In this document: positions 1 to 4,543 of the stretch, in pieces
How positions within the stretch are numbered: the stretch's first letter is position 1
Layout: each line of letters opens with the position of its first letter
From: a virus
Lineage: Duplodnaviria > Heunggongvirae > Uroviricota > Caudoviricetes
Virus record (IMG/VR): IMGVR_UViG_2695420746_000012
DNA: 4,543 nucleotides
Strand: one strand, 5' to 3'
The notes under the pieces: model-generated
Seen by the model: only the letters and a program-made list of their open reading frames with translations
Database searches by the model: none
Told to the model about the DNA's origin: nothing
Translations under genes and position numbers: made by a program

Positions 1-11
1 CGCGTTATTAG

Positions 12-55
12 TTATCTTATTCTCAAATTGTGTTACGATAATCCGAGCGGATAAT
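12..55 (+). promoter_or_regulatory. Candidate telN promoter elements (uncertain)
   Basis: Two GATAAT hexamers (37-42 and 50-55) lie within a GATAATC direct repeat (37-43, 50-56). TTGTGT at 28-33 is a possible -35 for the second one with a 16-bp spacer, but that would start transcription inside the telN Shine-Dalgarno, so the true promoter may lie upstream of the window. Confidence 0.2.
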
Positions 56-68
56 CAGGAGAGGAAAG

Positions 69-1964
69 ATGAGCAAAGTAAAAATCGGTGAATTAATAAA
101 CTCACTTGTTAGCGATGTTGAGTCAATAGATAACTCTGACCGTCCTCAAGGGGAAAAAACAAAAAAAATAAAGGCTGTTGCATTAAAATTTAAAAATGCA
201 TTATTTAATGACAAGCGAAAGTTTAGGGGGAAAGGATTAGAAAAAAGAATTACAGCCAACACATTCAATGCCTATATGAGCAGGGCCAGAAAACGGTTTG
301 ATGATAAACTTCATCATAGCTTTGAAAAAAATATACATCGCCTATCTGAAAAGTATCCTTTATATAATGAGGAGCTATTGTCATGGCTTTCTCTACCTGC
401 TGCCGATATTCGCCAAAGAATGTCAGCTTTACAGACAAAATTAAAATTAATTCTCCCTTTATCAGAAGATTTATCTAATATAAGAATTGGTGATAACAAA
501 AGTCATAATAAGTTATTAAAATTATCAAATAAATATAAAGAGTGGCAATTCGCCATTTCTGATTTAACTAGCGATAACTGGAAAGATAAGCGCGATTATT
601 TATATAAATTACTACAGCAAGGATCTGCCTTACTTGAGGAGTTGAATCAGCTAAAAGTTAACCATGAGATTCTCTATCATCTTCAACTAAGCCCTGCCGA
701 ACGAGCATCTATCCAGCAACGATGGGCGGACGTTCTGCACAATAAGAAACGTAACGTGGTGGTCATTGATTACCCTAAATATATGCAAGCTATTTACGAT
801 ATTATAAATAGCCCTGCTACATTAAATAATCTAAACACTCGTTCAGGTATGGCTCCTTTGGCATTTGCACTTGCTGCATTGTCAGGAAGACGAATGATTG
901 AGATTATGTATCAAGGTACATTTACTGTTTCTGGTAAGTATACCGTTGATTTTTTAGGCCAAGCTAAAAAAAGAACTTCTGATGATATAACCAGAAAAAT
1001 ATATACATTATGCGAAGCAAAAACATTTGTTTATTTAATAAATGTACTTCGCTCATGCCCAGCAGCATCTGATTTTGATGATGTCGTTAAAGGTTATGGA
1101 GATAACGACACACGCTCTGAAAACGGACGTATTAATGCCATATTAGCAAAGGCTTTTAACCCGTGGGTTAAATCATTTTTCAAAGATGACCGCCGTGTTT
1201 ATAAAGATAGTCGTGCTATTTATGCCCGTATTGCGTATGAAATGTTTTTCCGCGTAGATCCTCGTTGGAAAAACGTAGATGAGGATGTTTTCTTTATGGA
1301 AATTTTAGGCCATGACGATGAAAACACTCAATTACACTATAAGCAATTCAAGCTGGCCAACTTCTCAAAGACATGGAGGCCAAATACTGGAAACGAAAAT
1401 ACCAGGCTGGAAGCATTGCAGCAGCTTGATGACAAAATGCCTGGATTCGCCAGAGGAGATGCCGGGGTTCGTCTGCATAACACAGTTAAGCAGCTGGTAG
1501 AGCAGGACCCCTCTATAAAAATCACGAACAGCACTCTAAGAGCATTCAAATTTAGCCCAACAATGATTAGTCGATACCTGGAATTTGCTGCTGATGCTCT
1601 GGGGCAATTTGTTGGCGAAAATGGACAATGGCAGCTGAAAATAGATACTCCAGAAATCGTTATGCCTGACGAAGAAGAGCTGGTAGCAATACCTGAACAG
1701 ACGGATGAATTATCAGAGGATGACGATCTGGATGACGACGAAATTGAGATAGAGGAAGAGGAAGAGGAAGAGAGCGTAGAAGAACAGCAACCGCCCGCGC
1801 CTTCTTCACCTGTATCTAAGCCGGTATTTAAGCCTGTGAGAAATATTGGTGATGGCTCATACGTTGTTGAGTTTCATTATAATGGCCAGAATTATGCTTG
1901 GTCCGGCAGTGCAAACAGCCCTATGTCAGCAATGCAGTTAGCATGGCTGACATATTTCGGATAA
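69..1964 (+). CDS. telN: Protelomerase (telomere resolvase) TelN, N15 family
   Basis: 631-aa ORF with Shine-Dalgarno AGGAGAGGA at 57-65 before the ATG at 69. From memory it matches phage N15 TelN along its whole length, including MSKVKIGELI at the N-terminus, SRAIYARIAYEMFFRVDPRW, and the C-terminal YAWSG motif. Tyr424 (LHYKQF), Arg275, Lys300 and His415 sit at positions I recall as TelN active-site residues. An acidic Glu/Asp-rich linker precedes the C-terminal domain, as in TelN/TelK. Confidence 0.95.
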   Translation: MSKVKIGELINSLVSDVESIDNSDRPQGEKTKKIKAVALKFKNALFNDKRKFRGKGLEKRITANTFNAYMSRARKRFDDKLHHSFEKNIHRLSEKYPLYNEELLSWLSLPAADIRQRMSALQTKLKLILPLSEDLSNIRIGDNKSHNKLLKLSNKYKEWQFAISDLTSDNWKDKRDYLYKLLQQGSALLEELNQLKVNHEILYHLQLSPAERASIQQRWADVLHNKKRNVVVIDYPKYMQAIYDIINSPATLNNLNTRSGMAPLAFALAALSGRRMIEIMYQGTFTVSGKYTVDFLGQAKKRTSDDITRKIYTLCEAKTFVYLINVLRSCPAASDFDDVVKGYGDNDTRSENGRINAILAKAFNPWVKSFFKDDRRVYKDSRAIYARIAYEMFFRVDPRWKNVDEDVFFMEILGHDDENTQLHYKQFKLANFSKTWRPNTGNENTRLEALQQLDDKMPGFARGDAGVRLHNTVKQLVEQDPSIKITNSTLRAFKFSPTMISRYLEFAADALGQFVGENGQWQLKIDTPEIVMPDEEELVAIPEQTDELSEDDDLDDDEIEIEEEEEEESVEEQQPPAPSSPVSKPVFKPVRNIGDGSYVVEFHYNGQNYAWSGSANSPMSAMQLAWLTYFG

Positions 1965-1975
1965 AGCATACGGTA

Positions 1976-2008
1976 AAGGCACCGAATTATCGGTGCCTTG
2001 TTGTGTTG
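1976..2008. terminator. Intrinsic terminator hairpin between convergent telN and the antirepressor remnant
   Basis: Perfect 10-bp inverted repeat AAGGCACCGA (1976-1985) / TCGGTGCCTT (1990-1999) with loop ATTA, followed on the + strand by the T-rich GTTGTGTTG (2000-2008). It starts 12 bp after the telN stop; on the - strand it is followed by the weaker TTTACCGTATGCTTTAT. Confidence 0.6.
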
Positions 2009-2009
2009 C

Positions 2010-2174
2010 CTACCTCGCCTGCCCCTTTTCGTCCTCATCAAACTTTCTGATGGCCGTAGAATCAATACCCGACGCCATACACACATCAGATGCAACAAAC
2101 CACGGTTCGCCGTTAATCATCACTACACGAACCTGATGCTCTTCCGGAAAGGAAAAGACTGCTAACGCGCTCAT
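2010..2174 (-). pseudogene. Truncated phage antirepressor, BRO-N/Ant N-terminal domain fragment (54 aa)
   Basis: My own translation of the - strand (below the ORF track's length cutoff): MSALAVFSFPEEHQVRVVMINGEPWFVASDVCMASGIDSTAIRKFDEDEKGQAR. It carries the BRO-N hallmark (FxF...R-hydrophobic-I-[DN]-GEPWFVA-DV...DDEKG) and has a strong Shine-Dalgarno AAGGAGG (2180-2186, - strand) 5 nt before the ATG at 2174. It stops at 2010-2012, right against the telN terminator hairpin, whereas full antirepressors are roughly 200-300 aa. Confidence 0.6.
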
Positions 2175-2404
2175 TCAGCCTCCTTATCGTGCAGCAATTG
2201 CGACGAGAGCGATGCTGAATACCCCTGTGCTTCGTGTGTTAGCTCACACGCAATTTGAAGGAGTTTCCCTGCTTCTGAGAGATAAATCGACGCCTCACAA
2301 CTGGAGATTGTCCGATGGGCTGATGATACGAGCGCATAGACCTGAGCCAGACGTTCATCCAACGATTCCAGCAGGCCAACAGTGTTCATTTTTACCTGAT
2401 TCAT
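2171..2404 (-). CDS. Hypothetical 77-aa protein, translationally coupled upstream of the antirepressor fragment (Icd-like by position only)
   Basis: ORF with Shine-Dalgarno GAGGTGG about 6 nt before the ATG at 2404. Its TGA stop overlaps the antirepressor ATG (ATGA at 2171-2174). No sequence family recognised; the placement matches icd in P1 immI / N15 immA. Confidence 0.5.
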   Translation of the reverse strand: MNQVKMNTVGLLESLDERLAQVYALVSSAHRTISSCEASIYLSEAGKLLQIACELTHEAQGYSASLSSQLLHDKEAE

Positions 2405-2565
2405 GCAGCCACCTCGCGCACCGGAATACGGGCAGACAATACCAGGACAAACCGGCTGGCGAACTGGCGACGAGCTTCCCGTTCAGATGACGCGATAGTG
2501 GAAAGATGATGGATGTGTGACTTTTTGTCTGTGCGAACGACTGCCGCAAATTTGAATTTGAACAT
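2401..2565 (-). CDS. Small leader ORF (54 aa from ATG 2565), ORFx-like, coupled to the next gene
   Basis: The ORF track starts this frame at a GTG (2613) inside an RNA hairpin; the first ATG is at 2565 with a weak AAGAG Shine-Dalgarno. Its TGA stop overlaps the ATG of the 77-aa ORF (ATGA at 2401-2404). Protein from the ATG: MFKFKFAAVVRTDKKSHIHHLSTIASSEREARRQFASRFVLVLSARIPVREVAA. Whether it is translated is uncertain. Confidence 0.3.
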   Translation of the reverse strand: MFKFKFAAVVRTDKKSHIHHLSTIASSEREARRQFASRFVLVLSARIPVREVAA

Positions 2566-2589
2566 GGTATGCACTCTTGTTTGGAAGAA

Positions 2590-2700
2590 CAGTGCTACCA
2601 CCAGAGTTCTCACGCTCTAAGGGGGTGGTAGCCCAGACGGGGGTGAGAATACCGGCCCAAACGATACCGGCCAGCCTTTCGGCTGCCCCGCCTGAGCCAC
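2590..2700 (-). ncRNA. Candidate structured regulatory RNA / leader (c4/CI/CA-like immunity RNA region); boundaries approximate
   Basis: In - strand sense: a 5-bp hairpin with GAAA tetraloop (CAGCC-GAAA-GGCTG, + coordinates 2672-2685); a 9-bp stem GCTACCACC/GGTGGTAGC (2594-2602 / 2624-2632) enclosing a 4-bp hairpin with loop CGUGAGAA; and a single-stranded UUCUCAC (2643-2649) complementary to that loop. It sits directly upstream of the ORFx-like RBS. Confidence 0.3.
2606..2615 (-). repeat. 10-nt motif GCGTGAGAAC (- sense), copy 2, in a hairpin loop (stem AGAG/CTCT, 2603-2618)
   Basis: Exact 10-mer also present at 2780-2789. Here it lies in the loop of a 4-bp hairpin nested within the 9-bp stem 2594-2632. 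Confidence 0.5.
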
Positions 2701-2730
2701 CATAATTCGGATATGCGCAGGCTTATATAC

Positions 2731-2757
2731 ACACAAAAAAACACGCTGGCGCGTGTT
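2731..2757 (-). terminator. Intrinsic terminator within the leader of the antirepressor operon
   Basis: - strand: 7-bp stem (+ coordinates 2740-2746 / 2751-2757, AACACGC/GCGTGTT), loop of 4 nt, followed by UUUUUGUGU (+ strand A-run 2733-2739). It lies between the two GCGTGAGAAC hairpins. Confidence 0.45.
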
Positions 2758-2776
2758 GTGCGTCGCTTGGGATATT

Positions 2777-2792
2777 CGGGTTCTCACGCCCG
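2777..2792 (-). repeat. 10-nt motif GCGTGAGAAC (- sense), copy 1, in a hairpin loop (stem CGGG/CCCG)
   Basis: Exact 10-mer at 2780-2789, flanked by the 4-bp inverted repeat CGGG (2777-2780) / CCCG (2789-2792). Same loop as copy 2 but a different stem sequence, i.e. compensatory pairing. Confidence 0.5.
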
Positions 2793-2812
2793 GCTGCGGG
2801 ATTTACCGCAGC
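2793..2812. promoter_or_regulatory. Operator-like palindrome GCTGCGG-N6-CCGCAGC
   Basis: 7-bp perfect inverted repeat separated by 6 bp (GATTTA), immediately downstream (- sense) of the candidate promoter. Could be a repressor operator or the 5' hairpin of the leader RNA. Confidence 0.3.
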
Positions 2813-2818
2813 GGAGTA

Positions 2819-2848
2819 ACTTTACCGTCAAAACGACGCACACGTCAA
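2819..2848 (-). promoter_or_regulatory. Candidate sigma70 promoter for the leader / antirepressor operon
   Basis: - strand -35 TTGACG (+ coordinates 2843-2848), 18-bp spacer, -10 TAAAGT (2819-2824). A second TTGACG at 2826-2831 has no good -10. Weak match, inferred mainly from position. Confidence 0.2.
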
Positions 2849-2868
2849 TAATTTGCAAAGACATTTTA

Positions 2869-2900
2869 CCCCGTGACCAGTCACGGGGACAGGTGTTTTT
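2869..2900. terminator. GC-rich hairpin with flanking A/T runs; probable terminator separating the four-gene operon from the antirepressor module
   Basis: Inverted repeat CCCCGTGA(C) / (G)TCACGGGG (2869-2888). On the + strand it is followed by ACAGGTGTTTTTAT; on the - strand it is preceded by an A-run and followed by TAAAATGTCTTTG. It lies 62 nt downstream of the - strand operon stop (2950), so it plausibly ends that operon, but the U-tract is better in + orientation. Confidence 0.4.
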
Positions 2901-2949
2901 ATAGTTTGCTTGAACGAGTGATCAGAAGTTGATCGTTAATCAAAGGCCA

Positions 2950-3237
2950 TTACGGATTAAGAGAGTGGAAATACCTAACTAACTTACCGGCATCATCACA
3001 TTTTTCTTTATCTTCTTCCTTAACATAGCCGCGACAGAAGGCTGAATAAAATTTCGCATTTTCAGAAGCAAAAGCAGCCGTCGAAAGGAGCAGTTCTTTG
3101 CATGATTCTTTTGATGCAGCATCGGGATTATTTTTACATGCAAGCTCCGCTGATGAGTTAATAACAGAAATGCTATCTTCCTGGGCATAAACCGCAGCAG
3201 AAAAGGCAAAACATAAAACCAAAATAAAACTCTTCAC
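2950..3237 (-). CDS. Small secreted protein (95 aa, predicted signal peptide, 4 Cys in mature part), unknown function
   Basis: The ORF track begins this frame at a GTG (3261) with no Shine-Dalgarno. A GTG at 3237 is preceded by a strong AGGAG (3243-3247) with a 5-nt spacer, giving MKSFILVLCFAFSAAVYA|QEDS..., a typical Sec signal peptide. The mature part is Lys/Glu-rich with four cysteines. Last gene of the operon. Confidence 0.55.
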   Translation of the reverse strand: MKSFILVLCFAFSAAVYAQEDSISVINSSAELACKNNPDAASKESCKELLLSTAAFASENAKFYSAFCRGYVKEEDKEKCDDAGKLVRYFHSLNP

Positions 3238-3257
3238 TTTATCTCCTGTAACAGTTA

Positions 3258-3659
3258 TCACAACTCAATCAACTTTTTAGCATCAGCCATACGCTTCAAC
3301 CAGTAATCAACAATCGGTTGCTCATCCACAGAATGTTTACCTGGTATAACTCGCCAGCTGTCTGCCGAAAGGCTACCGTATCTATGCGGGAAAAGGCATT
3401 TCTTTAGCTCCTGCCATGTGCTAGGAAAACCGTCTGCCAAAGTGCCAATTAACAGAAAAGGGACAAAAATCAGGGCTACAAACCATCGGGCAAGAAAGTG
3501 CTCAACAATAACCTCTTCACCGTTATAGTAATACGCATACGTATCCCATATACGAATTTTCCTTACCCTAAAAATGGCCTTATGCTGAGAACGACTTAGC
3601 TTGATGCGAATGTATCCCTTATCCAAGAGGGATTGGTGTTTGTATGATTGAACAGCCAT
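3258..3659 (-). CDS. Hypothetical membrane protein (133 aa from ATG 3659; one central TM helix)
   Basis: The track starts this frame at a GTG (3671) overlapping the upstream gene; the first ATG (3659) is 2 nt after the upstream stop and is preceded by GTGGGG. It has a basic N-terminal region (IRIKLSRSQHKAIFRVRKIRIW) and a hydrophobic segment WFVALIFVPFLLIGTLADGF. No family recognised. Confidence 0.5.
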   Translation of the reverse strand: MAVQSYKHQSLLDKGYIRIKLSRSQHKAIFRVRKIRIWDTYAYYYNGEEVIVEHFLARWFVALIFVPFLLIGTLADGFPSTWQELKKCLFPHRYGSLSADSWRVIPGKHSVDEQPIVDYWLKRMADAKKLIEL

Positions 3660-3661
3660 TT

Positions 3662-3988
3662 TTAACCCCACTCACCATCAGCAAACAAAGCGTTATACTC
3701 TGACAATGGTAGACGGTTGCCCTCGATGTAGAGATTCAGTTCATACTTCGTCTCCGGGTTTTCCTTGTCGGCTCGTTCCCAACGCTCAGCAGCCTTACAC
3801 GCCAATAATTCCACTGCTTTCAGATAATCCTCCGTACGGAACCAGCCAAAGATAAGGCCACGATCTGTTACAGCCCAGGCAACCTTTTTTTCTTCCTCCT
3901 GGATAGCCTTAATGCGTCGATCGCATTCATCCCGGCAAAACTGCAGCTGACGGTAATCAAGTTTGTCCAAAAATGCAGTAGTAGACAT
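3662..3988 (-). CDS. Hypothetical soluble protein (108 aa)
   Basis: ATG at 3988 preceded by Shine-Dalgarno GGGGAG, which lies in the last codons of the upstream gene, 4 nt after its stop. No hydrophobic segment; charged and helical-looking. No family recognised. Confidence 0.55.
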   Translation of the reverse strand: MSTTAFLDKLDYRQLQFCRDECDRRIKAIQEEEKKVAWAVTDRGLIFGWFRTEDYLKAVELLACKAAERWERADKENPETKYELNLYIEGNRLPLSEYNALFADGEWG

Positions 3989-3992
3989 ATTT

Positions 3993-4184
3993 TTACTCCC
4001 CGTTCACCGAAAAATCACGATAGAAACATTTCCACATACGATAAGTCTGCGCGAGTTGTTCACCACGAAACATCGCCTTCCTGGCCTTCATGTTTTCCTT
4101 GTGAGACTTTCGATCTATGAACCAAAACCATTGCTGGAACACACAAAGCAAGAGACACAAAGATAATATCCACTGATTACCCAT
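3993..4184 (-). CDS. Hypothetical small membrane protein (63 aa, N-terminal TM helix)
   Basis: Taking the ATG at 4184: MGNQWILSLCLLLCVFQQWFWFIDRK..., an N-terminal hydrophobic helix followed by a basic tail. The Shine-Dalgarno is weak (AGGG about 9 nt upstream). The same frame stays open upstream across the IS2 boundary, so the true 5' end is uncertain and the gene may be IS-truncated. Confidence 0.4.
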   Translation of the reverse strand: MGNQWILSLCLLLCVFQQWFWFIDRKSHKENMKARKAMFRGEQLAQTYRMWKCFYRDFSVNGE

Positions 4185-4220
4185 AGAAAGCGCCCTGCTC
4201 TTCGTAGCTGCATGGGCTAT

Positions 4221-4261
4221 TAGACTGGCCCCCTGAATCTCCAGACAACCAGTATCACTTA
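4221..4261 (+). repeat. IS2 left terminal inverted repeat (IRL), approximate extent
   Basis: Terminal approximately 41 bp of IS2 beginning TAGACTGGCCCCC; the right-hand copy lies outside the window. Confidence 0.7.
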
Positions 4262-4311
4262 AATAAGTGATAGTCTTAATACTAGTTTTTAGACTAGTCA
4301 TTGGAGTACAG

Positions 4312-4543
4312 ATGATTGATGTCTTAGGGCCGGAGAAACGCAGACGGCGTACCACACAGGAAAAGATCGCAATTGTTCAGCAGAGCTTTGAACCGGGGAT
4401 GACGGTCTCCCTCGTTGCCCGGCAACATGGTGTAGCAGCCAGCCAGTTATTTCTCTGGCGTAAGCAATACCAGGAAGGAAGTCTTACTGCTGTGGCCGCC
4501 GGAGAACAGGTTGTTCCTGCCTCTGAACTTGCTGCCGCCATGA
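4312..4543 (+). CDS. insC: IS2 OrfA (transposase regulatory protein InsC), 5' part only
   Basis: ATG at 4312; translation [77 protein letters not shown]... is the IS2 OrfA N-terminus with its helix-turn-helix. The ORF runs off the window end with no stop, which is why it is absent from the ORF track. Confidence 0.9.

Follow-up and report, generated by a model that had tools for sequence, protein, structure and literature searches.

What is the function of a short sequence that occurs twice in the leader of a phage operon, each time in the loop of a hairpin, with its complement lying between the two copies? We addressed this question for a locus on the − strand of a 4,543-nucleotide stretch of viral DNA (hereafter the window), where an initial annotation had recognized such a pattern and had read it as the signature of a c4/CI-type antisense immunity RNA. 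The sequence GCGTGAGAAC is found twice exactly in the window, at 2789–2780 and 2615–2606, and each copy sits in the loop of a 4-bp hairpin, as had been described. With up to one mismatch allowed, 0.22 chance matches are expected, and two or more were obtained in 3 of 200 shuffles. GTGAGAA or its complement, a 7-mer, is found at four places in the window, of which three belong to the locus, against an expectation of 0.45; a count of four was reached in none of 200 shuffled controls. The UUCUCAC element, the GAAA-tetraloop hairpin and the terminator that the initial annotation had placed between the copies are all present, and the second hairpin does lie near a ribosome-binding site, ending 24 nt before the AAGAG (2578–2574) of an open reading frame with its ATG at 2565. 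The span that it had delimited, 2590–2812, takes in the repeats, the RNA and the terminator but leaves out the promoter (2848–2819) and a2 with the Shine–Dalgarno sequence (2585–2574). It had seen one set of recognition elements, b1, b′ and b2, and missed the other, a′, a1 and a2 (Table 1).

To place the locus in a family, we searched the − strand with Rfam covariance models, the check that had been suggested. RF01695 (C4 antisense RNA) matched 2707–2621 over the whole model (positions 1–87 of 87) with 75.2 bits against a threshold of 45 (E 5e-14), and RF01394 (isrK/SeqA-type leader) matched 2812–2736, also over the full model, with 67 bits against a threshold of 50. RF03163 (c4-a1b1) fell below threshold in the window, at 43.3 bits against 46.7 (E 9e-9). 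N15 (42.4), P4 and PY54 also come out just under the threshold of this model (40–44 bits), phiKO2 and Gifsy-1 pass it, and the nucleotides concerned in the window already lie inside the isrK match. The order isrK then C4 is common to N15, phiKO2, PY54, six other phage-plasmids, P4 and Gifsy-1. A C4-like segment is also carried by roughly 1,400 conjugative plasmids. These scores, together with homology and synteny with N15 immA, bear out the call of a c4/CI-type antisense immunity RNA, and we consider it very probable that the locus is the immA-type secondary-immunity (anti-immunity) module of an N15-like linear phage-plasmid of E. coli, belonging to the antisense-RNA family of P1/P7 c4, N15 CA and P4 CI. 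Homology also settles the roles of the parts: the antisense RNA would be the 2707–2621 element, with UUCUCAC in its single-stranded joint, the two hairpin loops would be its targets, and the terminator would belong to a short leader RNA.

Table 1. Predicted elements of the locus and of the adjoining operon in the window.
Feature	Position	Strand	Details
Predicted sigma-70-type promoter	2819–2848	−	TTGACG, 18 nt, TAAAGT; 9/12 matches; position equivalent to N15 immA promoter
First leader hairpin	2793–2812	−	GCUGCGG-UAAAUC-CCGCAGC; first helix of isrK and c4-a1b1 models
Target hairpin 1 (b1; P4 seqA equivalent)	2777–2792	−	Stem CGGG (2792–2789)/CCCG (2780–2777); loop CGUGAGAA (2788–2781); core GUGAGAA (2787–2781)
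a1	2763–2771	−	CCCAAGCGA; 9 bp, one G-U, with loop of second internal hairpin of C4 RNA
Intrinsic terminator	2735–2757	−	AACACGC-GCCA-GCGUGUU and U run; ends short isrK/SeqA-like leader RNA
C4/CA/CI-type antisense RNA	2621–2707	−	RF01695 full-model match
C4 RNA closing stem, 17 bp	2702–2686 with 2642–2626	−	
C4 RNA hairpin I, GAAA loop	2685–2672	−	
C4 RNA hairpin II	2671–2651	−	a′ in loop: UCGUUUGGG, 2664–2656
b′ (UUCUCAC)	2649–2643	−	Single-stranded joint of C4 RNA
Target hairpin 2 (b2; P4 seqC equivalent)	2603–2618	−	Stem AGAG (2618–2615)/CUCU (2606–2603); loop CGUGAGAA (2614–2607); core GUGAGAA (2613–2607)
a2 and Shine–Dalgarno	2574–2585	−	UCCAAAC (2585–2579) directly abuts AAGAG (2578–2574) of icd-like gene
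Alternative long hairpin	2594–2632	−	GCUACCACC (2632–2624) with GGUGGUAGC (2602–2594); encloses target hairpin 2
icd-like gene, 54 aa	2401–2565	−	First ORF of controlled operon; NCBIfam NF033153 phage_ICD_like, 67 bits against 25
antA-like gene, 77 aa	2171–2404	−	66% identical to N15 gp31; start overlaps icd stop (ATGA)
Truncated antB/Bro-N gene, 54 aa	2010–2174	−	Pfam Bro-N, 26.2 bits

The leader is predicted to start from the sole promoter-like site within 1960–3000, whose hexamers are almost invariant in 40 related leaders. As in isrK-type elements, two hairpins are then followed by an intrinsic terminator; its stem (2757–2740), with the T run behind it, was found independently of the isrK match and is almost invariant in relatives. 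Among 37 distinct leaders, the first leader hairpin was paired in 100% of the cells, with two-sided changes in four of its seven pairs. The C4 RNA folds alone as the family consensus (−50.2 kcal/mol, z −4.8, single-sequence minimum free energy (MFE)), and the helices are kept in the same 37 leaders, at 98–100% pairing: the closing stem and hairpin II were 100% paired and hairpin I 99%, with compensatory changes in four of the five pairs of hairpin I. The closing stem is tRNA-like and conserved, and it is followed by ACC (2626–2624), as expected of an RNase P substrate. The mature C4-type RNA is predicted to be about 79 nt long, from 2701 to about 2623.

We then asked whether the proposed pairings between the RNA and its targets are kept when the sequences change. 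In the window, b′ is complementary over 7 bp to both target loops. The initial annotation had staked its reading on conservation of this loop and complement pattern in related phage-plasmids, and the pattern is indeed kept, and covaries, in N15, phiKO2, PY54, several Klebsiella phage-plasmids and IMG/VR contigs; by eye, P4 and Gifsy-1 have the same layout with loop and complement sequences of their own. Across the 37 distinct leaders, b1, b′ and b2 covary three ways and fall into five specificity classes: b′/b2 was 100% paired over seven pairs with two-sided changes in five, b1/b′ was 93% paired with five of seven pairs compensatory, and a1/a′ had two-sided changes in seven of nine column pairs. 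When the partner was slid by one to three columns, a control computed for the whole tested structure, pairing was 35–48%. Covariation is thus strong at b1/b′, b′/b2 and a1/a′ and in two hairpins, the first of the leader and the internal one of the C4 RNA. Duplex energies agree: the b duplexes, including b′/b2, gave about −8 kcal/mol for cognate partners against about −0.5 to −0.4 for non-cognate ones, and the mean for a′/a1 was −12.0 against −7.0 kcal/mol. The a′/a1 duplex of the window itself has −13.6 kcal/mol, and 22 of 5,000 loop shuffles were as good. The difference between the two target stems, CGGG/CCCG and AGAG/CUCU, had initially been taken as covariation. Both stems are paired, but they are two paralogous hairpins of one sequence; across the 37 distinct homologues the two 4-bp stems hardly vary and show no two-sided change, and we regard covariation of these stems as only partly supported in the window and as unsupported across homologues.

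Of the two elements at the downstream target, a2 is the weaker and is the weakest of all those at the locus. In the allele of the window, a′ pairs with a2 over a short stretch, 7 bp including one G-U, that ends at the edge of the Shine–Dalgarno sequence without covering it; in other classes, as read from the allele table, the pairing extends into GGAG. The duplex in the window (−8.3 kcal/mol) was matched by 118 of 5,000 shuffles and is weak alone, but only 3 of 5,000 shuffles were as good for a1 and a2 jointly. By column counting, a′/a2 was paired in 61% of cells in the 37 leaders, as the register of pairing differs from class to class and indels intervene. We therefore scored it by per-sequence duplex energies (−9.9 kcal/mol cognate against −6.4 non-cognate), a substitution that is the reason for treating a2 as the weakest element. 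Target hairpin 2 is moreover enclosed by an alternative long hairpin, whose GCUACCACC arm is the 3′ strand of the C4 closing stem, so that the two structures are mutually exclusive. This hairpin was 100% paired in the 37 leaders, has compensatory changes in phiKO2, and its arms are complementary by eye in P4 (GCUAUCGCC/GGCGAUAGC) and Gifsy-1 (UCACCACC/GGUGGUGA). It appears in the MFE fold of the whole 268-nt leader (z −5.5), which also pairs b1 with b′ and a1 with a′ in cis, and some of the regulation may therefore be intramolecular.

The genes that follow are those of an N15-type immA operon: the leader RNA, icd, antA and antB come in this order next to telN, which is recognized by four protelomerase Pfam domains. 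The homologue of antA in phiKO2 is annotated as similar to N15 AntA. As in other members of the C4 family, a′ and b′ are complementary to one upstream and one downstream site of the same transcript, and the downstream one is found at the ribosome-binding site for the operon's first ORF, with a2 abutting AAGAG and the icd ATG at 2565. Of AntB only the N terminus is left, aligning to residues 1–52 of N15 gp30 (264 aa). With antB truncated to 54 aa, part of the controlled operon has therefore decayed. Escherichia phage PhiR46_1 has the same short antB, and a BRO-family gene stands at the position of antB in the 16 E. coli records with which most of the window is shared. The leader of the window is a divergence hot spot within an otherwise 96%-identical backbone, which is consistent with recombination or with diversifying selection on immunity specificity.

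The stretch that we assign to RNA can also be read as a gene. In the identical plasmid NZ_LR883007.1, PGAP places an ‘ash family protein’ CDS over it and no RNA is annotated, and the translation of the frame concerned (2787–2617, 56 aa; 2787–2620 in the profile search) matches Pfam Phage_ASH (PF10554) with 30.4 bits against 26. The locus would then code for a small ‘Ash family’ protein and the repeats would be incidental to coding, which we hold to be highly improbable. Such an ORF would start within the target-1 loop and cross the intrinsic terminator. Close relatives differ in the frame of the open stretch across the RNA and in where it starts and ends (in L041 the longest is 36 aa), the classes are separated by one-base indels, and substitutions are compensatory in the RNA helices and in the intermolecular pairings. 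Similar ORFs were initially assigned to P4 cI, P1 c4 and N15 cA before their products proved to be RNAs, and GenBank U63086 still has a ‘cA’ CDS. We rejected a coding function despite the Pfam match and the PGAP annotation, since relatives do not conserve the frame and substitutions track RNA pairing; the public annotation, with its Ash call and no RNA, thus illustrates well how a protein gene can be called on top of a structured RNA.

Granted that the product is an RNA, it could act in cis only, with alternative leader structures setting terminator read-through and icd translation and no processed RNA acting in trans. The intramolecular pairings and the conserved, covarying alternative hairpin described above would suit such a mode, and alternative cis structures have been demonstrated at the homologous isrK locus of Gifsy-1 (PMC4825925). 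Stable processed trans-acting RNAs are, however, made by P1/P7 c4, P4 CI and Gifsy-1 STnc1160 (PMC4825925, PMC12197685), the closing stem with its ACC tail is conserved as an RNase P substrate would be, and two identical target loops for one b′ best fit a diffusible regulator. We therefore consider control in cis alone very unlikely; the two modes are compatible, and the mechanism probably includes folding in cis. Another doubt concerns whether the module still works. The RNA and its targets could have been inherited in a decaying remnant that no longer controls a functional anti-repressor system, since antB is reduced to 54 of about 260 aa, an IS2 is located 1.4 kb upstream, and the identical plasmid NZ_LR883007.1 has a frameshifted protelomerase and an ISKpn26 insertion. 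Yet the promoter, the terminator, the RNA, both targets, icd and antA are all intact, and the complementarity of b1, b′ and b2 is perfect. PhiR46_1 was deposited as a phage, which suggests that the short form of antB is tolerated. According to the phiKO2 annotation, AntB is besides only the ‘auxiliary’ anti-repressor, and PMC4488713 describes its function as unresolved. We consider it unlikely that the module is such a remnant.

Taken as an RNA that acts on two sites of its own leader, the locus would work as follows, with processing, action in trans, polarity and phenotype modelled on the characterized relatives. The − strand would be transcribed from the promoter at 2848–2819, and most transcripts would end at the terminator (2757–2735), yielding an isrK/SeqA-like leader RNA of about 77 nt with b1 (GUGAGAA) and a1 (CCCAAGCGA). 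From transcripts that read through, the C4-type RNA (2707–2621) would be excised and remain as a stable product of about 80 nt, RNase P forming its 5′ end by a cut at the tRNA-like closing stem that probably falls between U2702 and G2701. Its a′ (UCGUUUGGG, in the loop of hairpin II) and b′ (UUCUCAC, in the joint) would pair with a2 and b2, site 2, on the read-through mRNA and block translation of icd. Expression of antA (and antB) would be turned off in turn through translational coupling and transcriptional polarity, and the prophage repressor would remain active. Pairing at site 1 may feed back on the synthesis or availability of the C4 RNA: it may enhance termination upstream of the C4 RNA gene, as reported for P4-like phages, or the short leader may serve as a decoy, as does IsrK of Gifsy-1. 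The specificity of immunity would be set by the a and b sequences.

The 40 leaders contain five b classes and at least eight a loops in 17 combinations, and a table of these alleles across the family amounts to clean intermolecular covariation in which three sites change together. The b specificity of the window is identical to that of the satellite phage P4 and also occurs in Klebsiella phage NAR688. Its b′ (UUCUCAC) is nearly complementary to the b′ of the N15 class (UUGAGAA; 6 bp, −6.1 kcal/mol). One reading of these observations, which we offer as a speculation with a small chance of being right, is that a and b form a two-key combinatorial code that reassorts freely among N15-like phage-plasmids. 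Since the b key of the window is that of P4, the code would be partly common to unrelated elements, and since the b′ of the window and that of N15 are nearly complementary, co-resident elements could cross-repress each other's anti-repressor operons or, by RNA–RNA titration, de-repress them. If true, this would be an RNA-level interaction network that links prophages, phage-plasmids and satellites. The allele table yields predictions of cross-reaction, or of its absence, in secondary immunity among N15-like phage-plasmids and P4-like satellites. In the limited literature that we searched, we found no earlier description of specificity classes in N15-like phage-plasmids. As a discovery the locus is of little importance: existing Rfam models recognize the element, and it is a homologue of the N15 CA system, which was characterized in 1999. 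What the analysis shows is its family membership, its structure, the covarying complementarity of two elements to two sites, and its gene context. The locus is an unremarkable representative of a family known since the 1990s. Only the reassorting a/b specificity alleles and the ‘ash family protein’ call placed over the RNA are mildly new.

The closest known system is that of N15, whose immA is summarized in PMC4488713 (citing Ravin 1999) as icd, antA and antB under the control of a small processed RNA. The window is homologous to it and syntenic, with 77.7% DNA identity over 2292–2938, and shares the position next to telN, the promoter, the leader hairpins, the terminator, the C4-type RNA, target hairpin 2 and the order icd-antA-antB. 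The two differ in specificity: N15 has b′ UUGAGAA, the loop UCUCAA and the a′ loop CUUCUUGUA, whereas the window has UUCUCAC, GUGAGAA and the a′ loop CGUUUGGG. They also differ in antB, which is 264 aa long in N15 (gp30) and truncated in the window. P4 CI belongs to the same RNA family, P4 scoring 74.9 bits on the C4 model and 60.8 on the isrK model. The passages of PMC4825925 that deal with P4 describe CI RNA as processed from the leader and pairing with seqA and seqC, with premature transcription termination as the outcome, and IsrK as a structural homologue of SeqA. The b specificity of P4 is identical to that of the window, with CGUGAGAA in the seqA and seqC loops and UUCUCAC in CI, and P4 too has the alternative long hairpin around site 2. 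P4 differs in its a element (CCUGUGAA with UUCACAGG), in a longer spacer between terminator and RNA, and in having the P4 replication-control genes downstream, where the window has icd and ant.

By published descriptions, the window also resembles the immI operons of P1 and P7 (c4-icd-ant1/2), founders of RF01695, in which an icd-ant operon is controlled and heteroimmunity is allelic (PMC12197685, PMC8198154, PMC2190699). There, c4 is an RNA of about 77 nt cut by RNase P from the leader of its own operon (PMC12197685, PMC8198154, PMC2190699); PMC2190699, citing Hartmann 1995, states that the precursor of C4 is a substrate of RNase P. With its a′ and b′ elements, a1 and b1 upstream and a2 and b2 at the icd ribosome-binding site, c4 blocks ant expression by pairing around that site, which is the basis of P1/P7 heteroimmunity (PMC12197685, PMC8198154). 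P1 and P7 belong to another phage lineage and have the repressor C1 in place of CB. Gifsy-1 IsrK/STnc1160 has the same isrK-then-C4 order, and the leader of the window matches isrK with 67 bits. Its own elements, as read from the sequence, are b ACGCCAA with UUGGCGU, plus a elements of its own, and the arrangement of a short terminated leader and a read-through mRNA has been shown experimentally (PMC4825925). In contrast to the window, Gifsy-1 has the anti-repressor gene anrP directly downstream, without icd, and the model published for it puts the emphasis on the short leader as an activator in trans, not on the C4-like RNA as a repressor.

The region 2590–2812, read on the minus strand, had been proposed in the initial annotation to carry a c4/CI-type antisense immunity RNA. 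We found GCGTGAGAAC twice on this strand, each copy in an 8-nt loop closed by a 4-bp stem, together with UUCUCAC, a GAAA hairpin and an intrinsic terminator whose stem is followed by a run of T, all as that annotation had described; the spacing between hairpin 2 and the Shine-Dalgarno AAGAG, put at about 25 nt, is 24 nt. With up to one mismatch allowed, 0.22 matches to GCGTGAGAAC were expected, and at least two arose in 3 of 200 shuffles. Counting both GTGAGAA and its complement, the window has four occurrences against 0.45 expected, and three of these fall in the leader locus; none of 200 shuffles gave as many as four. Just upstream of the −35 hexamer lies a perfect 9-bp inverted repeat, CCCCGUGAC-UG-GUCACGGGG, which is kept in nearly all N15-like leaders and might serve as an operator or as the terminator of the upstream gene.

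Features of the locus and their coordinates
Feature	Position	Strand	Evidence or remark
Protelomerase gene, 631 aa	69–1964	plus	four protelomerase Pfam domains
GC-rich hairpin AAGGCACCGAATTATCGGTGCCTT	1976–1999
AntB/Bro-N, first 52 residues	2174–2010	minus	Bro-N profile; alignment to N15 AntB
AntA homologue	2404–2171	minus	66% identity to N15 gp31
Icd-like gene	2565–2401	minus	NF033153, 67 bits
Shine-Dalgarno AAGAG	2578–2574	minus
a2, UCCAAAC	2585–2579	minus	7 bp with a'
Alternative hairpin arms	2632–2624 with 2602–2594	minus	full-leader fold
Target hairpin 2 (repeat)	2618–2603 (2615–2606)	minus
b', UUCUCAC	2649–2643	minus
a', UCGUUUGGG	2664–2656	minus
GAAA hairpin	2685–2672	minus
C4 antisense RNA (RF01695)	2707–2621	minus	75.2 bits, threshold 45
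Terminator stem	2757–2740	minus
a1, CCCAAGCGA	2771–2763	minus	9 bp with a'
Target hairpin 1 (repeat)	2792–2777 (2789–2780)	minus
isrK (RF01394)	2812–2736	minus	67 bits, threshold 50
c4-a1b1 (RF03163)	2825–2773	minus	43.3 bits, below threshold 46.7
Promoter TTGACG-18-TAAAGT	2848–2819	minus	sequence match
Inverted repeat	2869–2888	minus
103-aa ORF	2950–3261	minus
IS2, left end	4221–4543		95–99% identity to IS2 copies

On the minus strand, Rfam gave overlapping matches to three known families, and those to C4 and isrK, which exceed the threshold, support the antisense RNA reading along with the N15-like immA gene layout. These matches also decide the roles that had been left undecided. The element between the terminator and hairpin 2 is the antisense RNA, with UUCUCAC in its single-stranded joint and the GAAA hairpin as its first internal hairpin; its predicted targets are the two CGUGAGAA loops, and the terminator would form the end of a short leader RNA. 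Folded alone, the C4 match adopted the fold of its family (−50.2 kcal/mol, z −4.8), and all defining features of the C4 family that are testable from sequence were present.

Using the Icd protein as a query, we fetched 48 IMG/VR loci and aligned 40 related leaders, 37 of them distinct. The target loops of hairpins 1 and 2 (b1 and b2) and their complement b' vary jointly, in five classes. Across leaders, the seven b'/b2 pairs were 100% paired, with two-sided changes in five, and b1/b' was 93% paired with five compensatory pairs; with the partner shifted by 1–3 columns, only 35–48% was paired, a figure for the whole tested structure. The mean energy of the b duplex was −8 kcal/mol for cognate and −0.5 kcal/mol for non-cognate partners. 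The order isrK then C4 also holds in N15, phiKO2, PY54, YDC107_1, PhiR46_1, NAR688, 48ST307, 020009, Kpn74, P4 and Gifsy-1.

Classes of the b element
b'	Target loop core	Found in
UUCUCAC	GUGAGAA	window, NAR688, seven IMG/VR leaders
UUGAGAA	UCUCAA	N15, YDC107_1
UUGCGAA	UCGCAA	PhiR46_1, Kpn74
UUCCUAC	GUAGGAA	phiKO2, PY54, 48ST307
GUUCCAA	UUGGAAC	020009

A second recognition element, missed by the initial annotation, is the loop of the second C4 RNA hairpin (a'), which is complementary to a1, just past target hairpin 1, and to a2, which directly adjoins the icd Shine-Dalgarno. Mean energies across the family were −12.0 (cognate) versus −7.0 kcal/mol (non-cognate) for a'/a1 and −9.9 versus −6.4 kcal/mol for a'/a2. 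In the window, both targets were matched as well in only 3 of 5,000 shuffles of the a' loop; a2 on its own is weak in the window allele. The a and b alleles reassort, with 17 combinations in the 40 leaders; the window pairs the a allele of YDC107_1 with the b allele of NAR688. This reassortment accounts for a leader (2560–2860) that is only 78% identical to PhiR46_1 (89% to YDC107_1) in a surrounding backbone of about 96% identity; the leader is a divergence hot spot. In PLSDB, the best match to the leader reached at least 99% in only two records, with NZ_LR883007.1 at 100%.

On the basis of the protelomerase gene and of the identity of the whole stretch to Escherichia phage PhiR46_1 (96% over 1–4221), to YDC107_1 (96.6% over 1–2934), classified in Ravinvirus, the genus of N15, and to the E. 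coli plasmid NZ_LR883007.1 (99%), the window is part of a linear phage-plasmid of the N15 type. DNA identity to N15 itself is 77.7% over 2292–2938, and the leader followed by icd, antA and antB matches the immA layout of N15 (PMC4488713). The antB gene is shortened to 54 aa, whereas the N15 and YDC107_1 versions have 264 and 258 aa; this 165-nt gene is also present in PhiR46_1. A two-piece match to YDC107_1 covers about 740 more bases there than in the window, as would be expected if sequence between antB and telN had been deleted. The genes telN and antB converge, and the GC-rich hairpin separates them, a position that suits a bidirectional terminator. Upstream of the leader, the 103-aa ORF has a signal-peptide-like N terminus and no match in a Pfam search; the counterpart in PhiR46_1 carries the annotation 'Spackle exclusion protein'. 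At 4221 the similarity to PhiR46_1 and other N15-like elements breaks off and the left end of IS2, known from many phages and genomes, begins, so IS2 has inserted upstream of the region with the replication (repA/primase) gene.

By analogy with related systems, the promoter would drive a leader transcript, much of which would end at the terminator as an approximately 77-nt SeqA/IsrK-like RNA carrying site 1, and a C4-type RNA would be excised from the read-through RNA. The a' and b' elements of this RNA would dock on the read-through mRNA at a2 and b2, where the ribosome-binding site borders them, blocking icd translation and, through coupling and polarity, antA expression. Pairing at site 1 would probably give feedback. 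In P4, the terminator upstream works more efficiently when CI pairs with seqA. For P1 and P7 c4, a block of icd translation and downstream expression by this pairing has been described (PMC12197685, PMC8198154), and P4 CI RNA likewise pairs with seqA and seqC (PMC4825925). The closing stem of the C4 RNA is followed by A2626-C-C, like a tRNA acceptor end, and in P1 and P7 the C4 precursor is a substrate of RNase P (PMC2190699); together these predict a product of about 79 nt that starts at G2701. The short IsrK RNA of Gifsy-1 activates downstream genes in trans (PMC4825925), as a decoy would.

In NZ_LR883007.1, the RefSeq/PGAP annotation covers the leader and C4 RNA with a CDS for an 'ash family protein' (window 2617–2787, minus; 2825–2995 in the plasmid record) and has no ncRNA there, and the ORF matches Pfam Phage_ASH at 30.4 bits. 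The frame, however, is not kept among relatives, and the substitutions across it track RNA pairing; we therefore rejected the reading that this stretch encodes a protein. The Phage_ASH family probably contains translations of the C4 RNA gene.

Purely intramolecular riboregulation is possible in part. In the full-leader fold, site 1 pairs in cis with a' and b', and a conserved alternative hairpin joins GCUACCACC, which is the 3' strand of the closing stem in the C4 RNA, to GGUGGUAGC, just past target hairpin 2. This hairpin was 100% paired in the 37 leaders, with compensatory changes in phiKO2, and by eye its arms are complementary in P4 and Gifsy-1 too; it may control processing or the way in which the b2 loop is presented. 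Homologous systems, however, possess processed, trans-acting RNAs. Decay of the module is suggested by the truncated antB and nearby IS elements, but icd, antA and the RNA with its two targets remain intact.

The antisense RNA module is already known in kind, since it has the C4 family features and a homologous system in N15, and Rfam recognizes it directly. Only mildly new are the combinatorial set of a and b alleles, the sharing of the b key with P4 and the erroneous protein annotation; no earlier account of the allele classes turned up in the literature searched, a weak form of negative evidence. A plasmid-collection search with window 2594–2704 found a segment with about 78% identity to the C4 RNA and target hairpin 2 in approximately 1,750 plasmids, mostly from E. 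coli and Salmonella (1,393 predicted conjugative), usually unannotated or labelled 'ash family protein'. Of the known systems, the N15 CA RNA with its immA operon comes closest; it is homologous and syntenic but differs in both alleles. The layout recurs in Gifsy-1 IsrK/STnc1160, with keys of its own. P4 CI belongs to the same RNA family and has an identical b key (seqA loop CGUGAGAA, CI UUCUCAC, seqC loop CGUGAGAA; P4 locus 1240–1500), whereas its a key and downstream genes differ, and partial RNA cross-recognition between P4-like satellites and phage-plasmids of the window class is conceivable.
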